NCBI GenBank assembly: GCA_035493675.1 | Contig: DATJIA010000103.1 | Location: 1 to 16,045 of the forward strand | Length of the DNA: 16,045 bases | Direction: 5' to 3' | Source: Kofleriaceae bacterium | GTDB taxonomy: Bacteria; Myxococcota_A; Polyangia; Haliangiales; Haliangiaceae | Shown: piece after piece, positions 707 to 10,424 of the stretch | How the letters are laid out: every line of letters starts with the position of its first letter | How positions within the stretch are numbered: position 1 is the first letter of the stretch | Position numbers and translations under genes: made by a program | Notes under the pieces: generated by a model | Told to the model about the DNA's origin: nothing | Databases searched by the model: none | The model's input: the letters and a program-made list of their open reading frames with translations, nothing else

Positions 707-2503
707 TCAGCGGCTGAGACCGTGCGTCGCGAGCAGCTCTTCGAGCTGCGTGGCGGTGAACGGCTTGATGATGCGCGGGCGCCCGGTGTCGGTGAGCGCG
801 CGCGAGATCTCCGCCGACAAGACGCCGCCGGTCATGAACACGAAGCGCGCGGCGAGCGCGGGGTGGCGGCGGCGCACCTCGTCGAAGAGCTCGAGGCCGG
901 TCGATCCGGCCAACATCACGTCGCAGACGATCGCGTCGAACGCGTCGTCGGAGTCGAGCATCGCGAGGGCCTCGGCGCCGGTGGTCGCGACCGCGACGTC
1001 GTGGTGCAGCTCGGTCAAGACGGCGGCGAGCGCGCGCAGGAGGTGCGGCTCGTCGTCGACGAGGAGCAAGCGGTGCGACGCCGCGGCCCGCGTCACGGCG
1101 GGCGCGGGCGCGGCGGCGGCGGTGGCGCGGCGCAGGACGACGCACACGGTGGTGCCGCGCCCGACCTCGCTCGCGATCGAGATCTCGCCGCCGAGATCGG
1201 TGACGATGCTGTGGCAGATCGACAAGCCGAGCCCGGTGCCGACGCCGACCGGCTTGGTCGTGAAGAAGGGCTCGAACACGTGCGGCAGGACGTCGGCGGG
1301 GATGCCGGCGCCGTTGTCGGAGATCTCGATCGCGACGCGATCGTCACCGCGCGCCGCGGTCGTGATCGCGATCCAATGATCGTCGGCGGTGCCCTCCGGG
1401 ATCGCGTGCGCCGCGTTCACGATCAGGTTGACGAAGACCTGCCCGAGGCGGACCTCGTCGGCCCACACCGGCGGCACGTCGCCGTAGCGCTTGACGATGC
1501 GCGCGCTGTGCCTGACGGCGCTGCCGCACAGGTTCACCGCGGCGTCGAGCACGCCGTGGACGTCGAGCGGCACGCGCGCGGCCTGCTCGGCGCGCGAGAA
1601 GATGCGCAGATCGCCGACGATGCGGCGGATGCGCTCGGCGCCGTCGAGCGCGGTGCGGAGGTGATCGGCGGCGGCGGTGGCGCGACCGTCGCGCGTGATC
1701 GCGCGCAGCGCCATCTCGACGCTCGACATCAGGTACGCGAGCGGGTTGTTGATCTCGTGCGCGACGCCGGCGGCGAGCGTGCCGAGCGACGCGAGGCGAT
1801 CGGCCTGCGCGAGGCGCGTGCGCAGCACCTCCTCGGCGGTGACGTCCCGGATGATGCCGACGCCGCCGGTGACCGTGCCGTTCTCGACGACCGGCGCGTA
1901 GAACACGCTCACCGGCGTGGCCTTGTCGGCGGTCGCGGAGCGATAGACGCCGTCGTAGCTGGCGAGCTCGCCGGCGAGCGCGCGCGTCACGCACGCGACG
2001 ATGTTCTGGTCGGGCAGGCTCAGCATGTTGAGCCCGATCAGCACGGCGCGGCTCGAGCCGATGATGCGGACGAAGTTCTGGTTGCACGCCGTGATCACGC
2101 CGTGCGCGTCGAAGTGCAGGATCCCCAGCGGCGCGTGCTCGAAGATCAGCTGATAGCTGCCGGCGCGCGGACCCGGCTCGGCGTCGTCGTGGATCGGCGT
2201 GAACGACAGCACCAGCGGGGCATCCCCACTCGCGACCGCGTCGACCTCGATCTCCACGTTGCCGCGGTGGAGCAGCGCGAGCCGCATCGGCGCGCGATCG
2301 CGCACGCGCGCCCGCGCGCGGAGCTCGTCGACGCACGCCCGTAACCGCGCGGGGATCAGCTGCACGAACGGCACGCCGATCATGCCGTCGGTCGCGCCGA
2401 GCAGATCGCGCGCGGCTTGGTTCGCGAGCACGACGGCACCGTGCTCGTCGAGCACCACGACCGGCACTCCGAGCGCCTCGACGATCTGGGCCGTCAGCTC
2501 CAT
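707..2503 (-). CDS. Cytoplasmic hybrid sensor histidine kinase (PAS-PAS-HisKA-HATPase_c-REC); stop codon included
   Basis: ATG at 2503-2501 (MELTAQIVEALG...) and stop TGA at 709-707. There are two PAS-like segments (VVLDEHGAVVLANQAARDLLG; ILHFDAHGVITACNQNFVRIIG). The H-box is LAAGVAHEINNPL, at about 1741-1764. HATPase_c motifs are present: NLIVNAAHAI, DNGAGIP, GTGLGLSICHSIV. The C-terminal receiver has LLLVDDE ... IVCDVMLAG ... IIKPF. No TM segments are evident. The six-frame ORF 707..4678 continues upstream, but only because no stop interrupts this frame in GC-rich DNA. Confidence 0.85.
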   Translation of the reverse strand: MELTAQIVEALGVPVVVLDEHGAVVLANQAARDLLGATDGMIGVPFVQLIPARLRACVDELRARARVRDRAPMRLALLHRGNVEIEVDAVASGDAPLVLSFTPIHDDAEPGPRAGSYQLIFEHAPLGILHFDAHGVITACNQNFVRIIGSSRAVLIGLNMLSLPDQNIVACVTRALAGELASYDGVYRSATADKATPVSVFYAPVVENGTVTGGVGIIRDVTAEEVLRTRLAQADRLASLGTLAAGVAHEINNPLAYLMSSVEMALRAITRDGRATAAADHLRTALDGAERIRRIVGDLRIFSRAEQAARVPLDVHGVLDAAVNLCGSAVRHSARIVKRYGDVPPVWADEVRLGQVFVNLIVNAAHAIPEGTADDHWIAITTAARGDDRVAIEISDNGAGIPADVLPHVFEPFFTTKPVGVGTGLGLSICHSIVTDLGGEISIASEVGRGTTVCVVLRRATAAAAPAPAVTRAAASHRLLLVDDEPHLLRALAAVLTELHHDVAVATTGAEALAMLDSDDAFDAIVCDVMLAGSTGLELFDEVRRRHPALAARFVFMTGGVLSAEISRALTDTGRPRIIKPFTATQLEELLATHGLSR

Positions 2504-2522
2504 CCCCACGTACGAGCATACT

Positions 2523-2541
2523 CTCACCCGGCGAGGGTGAG
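2523..2541 (-). other. Perfect GC-rich stem-loop (7-bp stem CTCACCC/GGGTGAG, 5-nt loop) filling the 38-nt gap between the giant ATPase stop and the histidine kinase start
   Basis: Plus-strand sequence ctcaccc-ggcga-gggtgag at 2523-2541, directly abutting the TGA (2544-2542, complement) of the upstream gene. No U/T tract follows it on the minus strand. Confidence 0.35.
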
Positions 2542-9805: not shown

Positions 9806-9806
9806 T

Positions 9807-10424
9807 TCACACTCCTCCAGGAGAAGGTTCCACCGCGAAGACGCGGCGGTCGGAATCGACGTCGATGACGAGCGCCTTGTCGCCGCGCACGAGCTTGTGC
9901 GCGGGATCGGCGCGGACCGCGATCTGCACGATGCTGCCGCCGTCGACGATGTCGGCGAAGCCGAAGTCGTTGTCGACGGTGTTGCTGGTGACCGTGCAGA
10001 TCGAGCCGATGTACTGCGCGTGGGTCTTCCCTTCCTTGATCTCGAAGACCGGCGCGAGCGGACGAACGAAGAGCGCGGCGAGCGGCAGCGCGACGACGAG
10101 CGCGAGCGGAAGCAGCAGCCAGCGCAGCACGCTCGACTCGCCCATGACGTAGTACGAGCCGAGCAGCGCCCCCACCCACGCCACCAGCACGATGACTGAG
10201 ATGCTGATCGTCAGCGGAACGTTGCCGAGGCCGAGATCCCAGTCGCTGTCCATGTCGACGTCGTGCCCACCATGTCCGAGCAGATCGATGTCGAGCGCAC
10301 CGATCACGACGAAGAGCCAATAGACGAGGACGATGCCCAGCGCGATCGTGAACACGATCGTCGGGAACCGCAGCGCGACATCCAACAGATTCACGTCAGC
10401 CCCCGTCAATTGTGTTGGTGCCAT
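9807..10424 (-). CDS. NfeD-like / YqiJ-family inner membrane protein (flotillin partner)
   Basis: Preferred start is ATG 10424-10422 (MAPTQLTGADVNLLDVALRFPTIVFTIALGIVLVYWLFVVIGAL...). It has 3-4 predicted TM helices followed by a C-terminal soluble beta-rich (OB-fold-like) segment, GSIVQIAVRADPAHKLVRGDKALVIDVDSDRRVFAVEP, as in short NfeD/YqiJ proteins. The stop TGA at 9809-9807 lies 1 nt before the flotillin ATG, indicating translational coupling. An alternative in-frame start at 10511 is less likely, because it would overlap a promoter-like TTGACA and translate through a hairpin. Confidence 0.7.
   Translation of the reverse strand: MAPTQLTGADVNLLDVALRFPTIVFTIALGIVLVYWLFVVIGALDIDLLGHGGHDVDMDSDWDLGLGNVPLTISISVIVLVAWVGALLGSYYVMGESSVLRWLLLPLALVVALPLAALFVRPLAPVFEIKEGKTHAQYIGSICTVTSNTVDNDFGFADIVDGGSIVQIAVRADPAHKLVRGDKALVIDVDSDRRVFAVEPSPGGV

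Follow-up and report, generated by a model that had tools for sequence, protein, structure and literature searches.

Contig DATJIA010000103.1 of a Kofleriaceae bacterium (16,045 bp, ~70% G+C; the whole stretch that was analysed, hereafter the window) carries four closely spaced genes on its minus strand, encoding a YqiJ-like protein, a flotillin-like protein, a giant AAA+ protein, and a hybrid histidine kinase. The locus raises the question of which of these genes belong together, and whether they make up a system not described before. An earlier reading of the DNA from its letters alone (the sequence-only reading) had proposed an undescribed membrane-microdomain system with a dedicated kinase. 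Our analysis points to a different answer: the window probably carries an abbreviated form of a known and widespread envelope-stress operon, in which the ATPase would remodel flotillin or PspA-type assemblies. The four genes are as follows.

9807-10424, minus strand: YqiJ-like gene, 205 amino acids (aa) from the ATG at 10424; the frame stays open to 10511
7772-9805, minus strand: flotillin/YqiK-type SPFH gene, 677 aa
2542-7767, minus strand: giant AAA+ gene, 1741 aa
707-2503, minus strand: hybrid histidine kinase gene, 598 aa

The open reading frame (ORF) calls and the junction sequences agreed with the four minus-strand genes and the spacing reported by the sequence-only reading. The YqiJ-like and flotillin-like genes meet at TGA-a-ATG with a Shine-Dalgarno-like run (GGAGGAG) just 5', the flotillin-like and giant genes meet at TGA-cgcg-ATG, and 38 nt separate the giant stop codon from the kinase ATG. 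We placed the start of the operon at the YqiJ-like gene, because a spacer and then a divergent plus-strand gene lie upstream of it.

10425-10540, minus strand: intergenic spacer upstream of the YqiJ-like gene, 116 nt; the divergent gene (10541-10954) is on the other strand

Judged solely by its position, this spacer is likely to be the promoter region of the operon and to serve the divergent gene as well. A sigma-70 consensus scan of the spacer gave no match, and a terminator scan inside the operon gave nothing meaningful.

Conservation of the three-gene module

To place the locus in a wider context, we scanned GTDB at one genome per species with the family alignment of the giant protein. At least 570 stretches were found to encode relatives of the giant, and 80 of these loci were taken with 10-kb flanks. 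They came from Myxococcota, Acidobacteriota, Planctomycetota, Actinomycetota (including Streptomyces, Nonomuraea, Amycolatopsis, and Micromonospora), and Gammaproteobacteria (including Pseudomonas, Pseudoalteromonas, Xenorhabdus, and Lysobacteraceae). Two of the 80 (L027 and L039) could not be assessed for gene order because they lie at contig ends.

By tblastn with the window proteins, 76 of the 78 assessable loci had a flotillin-like gene directly 5' of the giant and in the same orientation. The full order of YqiJ-like, flotillin-like, and giant genes on a single strand was kept in the same proportion of loci (76/78), which supports the linked unit that the sequence-only reading had described. 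Both exceptions were in metagenome-assembled genomes related to Labilithrix. In one (L011) the flotillin-like gene lay 6.4 kb from the giant gene, and in the other (L047) none was found within 10 kb. Labilithrix luteola (L009) showed the usual gene arrangement, and the two exceptional loci may be second copies or rearrangements.

Of 81 loci, 73 had a YqiJ-like gene 5' of the flotillin-like gene, and among the eight without one, six end at a contig edge. It preceded the flotillin-like gene wherever the sequence extended far enough, with the exception of the same two Labilithrix-related loci. The estimated gap between the flotillin stop and the giant start had a median of 91 nt, and 74 of 77 gaps were no longer than 300 nt. 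In three further close relatives (L083-L085) the module genes overlapped or were 3-10 nt apart. The identity of the flotillin-like protein and that of the giant to the window copies co-varied over the loci (Spearman 0.64).

All-against-all ORF clustering of 81 neighbourhoods recovered three broad families, which were the giant (81 loci), the flotillin-like (78 loci), and the YqiJ-like (73 loci) proteins. The clustering yielded no fourth conserved gene, and the other large clusters were antisense-ORF artefacts. The YqiJ-like, flotillin-like, and giant genes are a genuine and deeply conserved unit, beyond chance. The sequence-only reading had called for a neighbourhood survey of the linkage between flotillin and the giant gene, and the present one shows it conserved over five phyla and not limited to the window genome. 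A giant AAA+ gene is tied to a flotillin gene in hundreds of species, Pseudomonas aeruginosa included.

Some lineages add genes of their own to this core, and these additions point toward the envelope. Genes for DUF2170 and PspA/IM30 proteins lay 5' of the module in 12 gammaproteobacterial loci of the 80. Also in Gammaproteobacteria, a rhomboid gene lay 3' of the giant in six loci and a PLD-like gene in six loci. A small Ion_trans_2-like membrane protein gene was divergent upstream in some Myxococcota, the window included. The gammaproteobacterial loci with a rhomboid and/or PLD (HKD) gene 3' of the giant were L052, L055, L073, L077, L078, and L081, with L071 having it on the other strand. P. 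aeruginosa has the PLD gene alone at this position. A rhomboid beside an SPFH protein recalls the eukaryotic SLP2-PARL pair.

Predicted architecture of the module proteins

The two smaller proteins of the window were nearly invisible to standard profiles. The 205-aa protein had no Pfam or NCBIfam match. The 677-aa protein had no Pfam match even at E<=10, Band_7 included, and NCBIfam FloT matched it weakly (23.7 bits). A PDB sequence search with the flotillin-like protein gave a marginal match to QmcA (E=0.031), and a profile search weakly matched the coiled-coil region of QmcA. The JGI name for its homologues is YqiK.

We therefore tested the labels by hhalign, using family alignments built from related loci against E. 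coli yqiJ and yqiK from NC_000913.3. The flotillin-like family aligned with E. coli YqiK at a probability of 99.9% (E=2.3e-32) over 398 columns and residues 16-445. This alignment takes in the membrane anchor and the SPFH domain, and extends over ~250 residues of an Ala/Glu/Lys/Arg-rich helical region. The YqiJ-like family aligned with E. coli YqiJ at a probability of 91.7% (E=7.7e-7) over 142 columns that take in the C-terminal beta domain. Its alignment (13 loci) showed three hydrophobic segments and a conserved C-terminal region with the motif G...G...VRA...GD.V. The YqiJ-like profile also matched the soluble domain of B. subtilis YuaF (2k14) weakly (E=0.72), in the correct region.

From these comparisons, the 205-aa protein is predicted to be YqiJ-like (short NfeD-like), with three hydrophobic helices and a C-terminal beta-rich (OB-like) domain. 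The 677-aa protein is likewise predicted to be of the flotillin/YqiK SPFH type, with an N-terminal membrane anchor, an SPFH domain, and a long Ala/Glu/Lys-rich helical region. The NfeD/YqiJ-like and flotillin labels of the sequence-only reading were thus upheld. Pfam Band_7 matched only 4 of 17 members of the flotillin-like family (best 1.7e-10), and Pfam Flot matched one relative (E=0.0058). Neighbourhood surveys keyed to PF01145 would under-count the operon, since the Band_7 model misses most of this flotillin subfamily.

The giant protein, which we take to be cytoplasmic, gave clear Pfam matches, which were PF12458 (DUF3686) at aa 26-481 (E=1.6e-181), PF25472 (DUF7902) at aa 602-686, and AAA/AAA_5 at aa 1287-1410. 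More than 5700 homologues shared this architecture. Homologues of the N-terminal part (aa 1-720) formed 933 clusters at 50% identity, and the full-length members were 1600-2036 aa long. Two AlphaFold2 models of the giant were built from a 67-sequence alignment (40-79% identity), with a mean predicted local distance difference test score (pLDDT) of 87.8 for aa 1-720 and 87.1 for aa 701-1741. The features of the giant are listed below by residue, with window coordinates (all on the minus strand) where they were assigned. The propeller, the arm's subdivisions, the hairpin, and the termini are as seen in the models.

aa 11-42: N-terminal helix
aa 48-415 (6523-7626, minus strand): beta-propeller of 28 beta strands, the core of DUF3686
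aa 421-1200 (4168-6507, minus strand): helical arm, with bundles that include DUF7902
aa 421-713: helical bundles
aa 702-854: long helices
aa 861-899: small, highly conserved beta domain
aa 903-1165: helical domain
~aa 1250-1500 (3268-4020, minus strand): AAA+ module
aa 1294-1299: Walker A, GYGKTT
aa 1356-1360 (3688-3702, minus strand): Walker B, LYLDD
aa 1382-1393: beta-hairpin that precedes sensor-1 N1407; R1425 was also noted
rest of the C-terminus: helical, low-confidence tail

The middle of the giant had been taken in the sequence-only reading for ~600 aa of coiled coil. We rejected a single long coiled coil, as the models instead gave helical bundles and two small globular regions.

The AAA+ module has the fold of the MoxR/dynein/midasin (AAA_5) clade, with the pre-sensor-1 beta-hairpin. 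Its Walker B motif departs from the canonical MoxR form (hhhhDE), in that an Asp replaces the catalytic Glu of most AAA+ proteins. Both Asp residues of this D-D motif were invariant in alignments of 11, 13, and 67 sequences, that is, across the family. No VWA, protease, or membrane-anchor segment was found in the giant by Pfam scan or in the models, and ORF clustering of the 81 neighbourhoods gave no conserved VWA/MIDAS partner gene. The earlier "MoxR/AAA_5-like" description therefore stood at the level of the fold, but neither the D-E of Walker B nor a VWA partner accompanies it here. That a VWA partner is missing had been observed in the sequence-only reading as well, and the clustering bears this out.

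Relation to the bac operon and other known systems

The closest match to a studied locus was in P. aeruginosa. The giant homologue there (P0259, 1746 aa) was 47% identical to the window giant over 93% of its length, and its 90%-identity cluster held 3222 sequences. The gene order at the P. aeruginosa locus was DUF2170, PspA, a 213-aa protein, a 688-aa protein, the giant, PLD, YaeQ, RecJ, and an M4 peptidase. We take the M4 peptidase to be LasB (PA3724). Counting the locus layout from LasB makes the P. aeruginosa giant gene PA3728, which is listed as "ATPase". The module of the window corresponds to bacC-bacD-bacE (PA3730-PA3728).

The bacABCDEF genes (PA3732-PA3727, or PA14_16140-16200) form a six-gene operon for which co-transcription over every junction was established by RT-PCR in 2024 (PMC10948618). 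In a bacA mutant, BacB-F accumulate 6- to 13-fold; the domains of BacE are not described in that paper (PMC10948618). PA3732-PA3729 had earlier been named a biofilm-associated cluster, in which loss of the PspA-like PA3731 led to defects in biofilm, swarming, rhamnolipid, and virulence, and PA3731 accumulated on osmotic shock (Mace et al., 2008). PA3728-PA3732 also rise together when P. aeruginosa is infected by phage, and they were co-regulated in a proteome study. The operon thus affects biofilm formation and virulence in this species.

The window and the bac operon share the core order of a YqiJ-like gene (213 aa in P. aeruginosa), a flotillin-like gene (688 aa), and a DUF3686/DUF7902/AAA gene (1746 aa). 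They differ at both ends. The bac operon has DUF2170 (BacA, CesT/Tir-like) and PspA/IM30 (BacB) genes at its head and a PLD-like gene at its end, none of which is in the window, whereas the module of the window is flanked by the divergent Ion_trans_2-like gene at its head and by the hybrid histidine kinase past its end.

The operon class itself has been described by Ravi et al. (mSystems 2024; preprint 2020; PMC11237479), who reported a CesT/Tir (DUF2170)-PspA dyad with flotillin, YqiJ/YuaF, and AAA+ genes, and sometimes a PLD hydrolase. Their components are a 3TM YqiJ/YuaF protein, an AAA+ protein with coiled coil and beta-propeller, and a band-7/flotillin protein, and abbreviated operons (flotillin and YqiJ/YuaF, sometimes with the AAA+ ATPase) were stated to be widely distributed (PMC11237479). 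These domain architectures match those of the window, with no difference in kind. The window has an AAA+ protein with an N-terminal beta-propeller and a helical region, adjoining flotillin and YqiJ-like genes; it lacks the DUF2170 and PspA gene pair that heads the full form. It is therefore a myxobacterial (Kofleriaceae) example of the abbreviated form, and the survey of 80 loci reproduces the wide spread stated for that form. The system cannot be called undescribed, as the sequence-only reading had it, because the same operon, the abbreviated three-gene form included, is in PMC11237479 and the bac operon is in PMC10948618.

Compared with these descriptions, the new results here are the quantified conservation survey, the placement of the ATPase in the MoxR/dynein/midasin clade with an invariant D-D Walker B, the lack of support for the name "DNA repair ATPase" (see below), and the failure of Band_7 to detect most of the flotillin subfamily. 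The window itself adds little that is new, and the giant gene family is a good target for experiments.

The first two genes of the window are homologous to yqiJ and yqiK and stand in the same order as in the classical pairs, E. coli yqiJ-yqiK and B. subtilis yuaF-floT. In E. coli, however, yqiK is followed by sibD/ibsD and not by a giant ATPase gene. The giant ATPase is an optional extension of the classical pair, since E. coli has yqiJ-yqiK without it. The flotillin-like protein of the window also belongs to a divergent and longer subfamily (677 vs 553 aa).

Relatives of the ATPase are more distant. The giant showed only 13-16% identity to the MoxR ATPases CbbQ, NorQ, and RavA and to the dynein/midasin AAA modules. 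It differs from all of these in having one C-terminal AAA+ module per 1741-aa chain, and from the MoxR systems in the D-D Walker B and the missing VWA/MIDAS partner. An AAA+ enzyme is likewise coupled to an SPFH scaffold, or to a PspA/ESCRT-III polymer, in HflK/C-FtsH, prohibitin-m-AAA, and ESCRT-III/Vps4. In contrast to FtsH, m-AAA, and Vps4, the giant has no protease domain, MIT domain, or membrane anchor, and its AAA+ clade is MoxR-like and not classical. The likeness to the SPFH-AAA+ and ESCRT-III/Vps4 pairs would be one of functional analogy only. An analogy with SPFH/ESCRT-type AAA+ pairs is likewise invoked by Ravi et al. (PMC11237479).

Function, competing explanations, and flanking genes

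The maintenance of bacterial membranes relies centrally on flotillin-type scaffolds and PspA/ESCRT-III-like proteins, and the giant AAA+ protein is an obvious candidate for the energy-consuming component in the assembly and disassembly of flotillin/PspA structures. In the mechanism that we favour, the YqiJ-like (3-TM) protein and the flotillin-like SPFH protein would together form an oligomeric scaffold at the inner membrane, on its cytoplasmic side. The giant would dock on this scaffold via its N-terminal propeller and helical arm, and would oligomerise, presumably as a ring, via its C-terminal MoxR-type AAA+ module. It would then spend ATP to assemble, disassemble, or remodel the scaffold or its clients during envelope stress. 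PspA/ESCRT-III-like polymers could be such clients; their genes belong to the operon in Gammaproteobacteria and presumably lie outside it in the window genome. An ATP-driven remodeller working with flotillin, as suggested by the sequence-only reading, is a plausible hypothesis, and the published analysis had already proposed the same.

Several observations weigh against this interpretation. A VWA/MIDAS partner is the norm for MoxR ATPases, and the module has no conserved one. The E. coli yqiJ-yqiK pair works without a giant ATPase. No PspA gene was found in the 16-kb window, nor within 10 kb of the module in the non-gammaproteobacterial loci, so that the Psp link is for the window genome an extrapolation. 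Finally, the invariant D-D Walker B may indicate that hydrolysis is slow, regulatory, or switch-like, and not motor-like.

The hybrid histidine kinase bears on a second question, that of how far the operon extends. Its Pfam domains were PAS, PAS_4, HisKA, HATPase_c, and Response_reg, which leave no space for a transmembrane segment, in accord with the soluble PAS-PAS hybrid kinase described from the sequence. The top NCBIfam matches were the myxobacterial EspC and EspA, both far under the cut-offs (386 vs 1200 bits). Right after the giant stop we noted a 7-bp inverted repeat on the minus strand (2523-2541, CTCACCC-tcgcc-GGGTGAG) with no T-run. In a high-GC organism such a repeat might attenuate or weakly terminate transcription, or mark a site of processing. 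Read-through from the giant into the kinase is likely in the window genome because the 38-nt gap has no canonical terminator.

The sequence-only reading would make the kinase the dedicated sensor and phosphorelay of a four-component flotillin/AAA+ microdomain machine. A kinase start 38 nt past the giant, on the same strand and without a canonical terminator between them, does make co-transcription likely here, but none of the 80 related loci had a kinase adjoining the giant gene, and the few kinase-like matches lay kilobases off or on the opposite strand. The kinase was also absent 3' of the giant in L083-L085. Close Kofleriaceae relatives with giants 72-76% identical to that of the window carried unrelated and mutually different genes at this position (L002, L003, L020, and L083-L085). 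Together with the three conserved families from the clustering and the hairpin within the gap, this makes a four-component system very unlikely. The reading of the kinase as dedicated is largely refuted by comparative genomics. The kinase is a local, lineage-specific neighbour and not a component of the module, although it may share its transcript. A related proposal is that the giant would be a MoxR/midasin-type mechanoenzyme that remodels flotillin cages or PspA (ESCRT-III-like) polymers at the inner membrane, as a bacterial counterpart of Vps4-like disassembly machines, and that it was newly brought under a soluble PAS hybrid histidine kinase in this Kofleriaceae lineage. The kinase part of this proposal concerns a single genome, and we consider the whole of it doubtful.

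The roles of scaffold and ATPase might also be reversed, so that the giant would be confined and regulated by the flotillin/YqiJ assembly, acting as its cage or platform, and the substrates would be other membrane-proximal proteins caught by the propeller. The gene linkage and the membrane context fit this equally well, and a propeller is a typical substrate- or partner-binding module. SPFH assemblies are known to enclose AAA+ proteases (HflK/C-FtsH, prohibitin-m-AAA, and SLP2-YME1L-PARL), and the rhomboid gene 3' of the giant in six gammaproteobacterial loci may be compared with SLP2-PARL. However, the giant has no protease domain or membrane anchor, a hexamer at 1741 aa per subunit would far exceed the known SPFH cage lumens, and the neighbourhoods held no conserved substrate candidate; we regard the cage as a live but unlikely alternative. 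A further reading, in our view highly improbable, is a system for phage defence or abortive infection, in which infection would be sensed at the membrane and the response carried out by the ATPase, aided in some lineages by an effector of the PLD type. It would account for the joint induction of PA3728-PA3732 in phage-infected P. aeruginosa (up-regulated in all infected samples), for the PLD/HKD gene 3' of the giant in six gammaproteobacterial loci and P. aeruginosa, and for the variation of flanking genes between lineages. Yet phage induction is also ordinary behaviour for a Psp-type envelope-stress response, and the effector-like gene is missing in most lineages. PADLOC on the window proteins gave P-loop-level matches only (IetA, 16.4 and 14.9 bits; mad8, 11.4 bits), with none for the other four proteins, and so no real defence match. 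A cluster of 3222 sequences, and the presence of the operon in both PAO1 and PA14 at >99% identity, are in keeping with a core gene, and not with a defence island of variable occurrence.

The name "DNA repair ATPase", if read literally, would make the giant a repair enzyme. It stems from the name of Pfam PF12458 ("ATPase involved in DNA repair"), spread by NCBI annotation, and weak RuvB P-loop matches at aa 1274-1320 and a recJ gene two genes downstream in P. aeruginosa would agree with it. The RuvB match was limited to the Walker A region, though, and was far under the cut-off (25 vs 282 bits), and the Pfam scan gave no DNA-binding, nuclease, or helicase domain. The genes conserved beside the giant encode membrane proteins, and recJ is not among them. 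A repair function is therefore barely credible. The literature search returned no mention of DUF3686, nor of "DNA repair ATPase" together with flotillin. We found the name, which is attached to thousands of NCBI/UniRef entries for the giant family (P0001-P0360 here), to be unsupported by domains, neighbours, or literature.

Among the neighbouring genes of the window, the divergent gene upstream of the module (10541-10954, plus strand, 137 aa) matched Ion_trans_2 below the threshold (E=5.8e-4, 20.1 vs 22.5 bits), and its protein has SVGYDN at the site where K+ channels carry TVGYG. Three Kofleriaceae loci (L001, L002, and L004) had the same divergent neighbour, at 56-64% identity, and L009, L013, and L026 gave weaker matches. 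A divergent gene of ~170 aa stood at the equivalent position in L083-L085. This gene may be a lineage-specific accessory of the module.

Further upstream, a 1440-aa ORF (10959-15281, minus strand) had an eCIS_core (DUF4157) domain at aa 128-202 (E=5.8e-24) with the HExxH-like sequence GHELAHVVQQ. It contained long low-complexity acidic and basic stretches and no other annotation, and it had no PADLOC match and no homologue among the 80 related loci. Another minus-strand ORF (15236-15856) overlaps its start by 46 nt. What this second ORF encodes of a trypsin domain is the C-terminal end alone (160-216 of the 220 profile positions), and a ricin-B lectin domain comes after it. The trypsin domain looks cut by an upstream stop, which may reflect a frameshift, a pseudogene, or an assembly error. 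At the other end of the window, an open frame on the minus strand (1-655) begins ~50 nt past the kinase stop and runs off the window start. Its N-terminus (MRSITSCVSCVLLGCAGS) resembles that of a lipoprotein, and the frame weakly matched polysaccharide deacetylase (E=1.4e-4).

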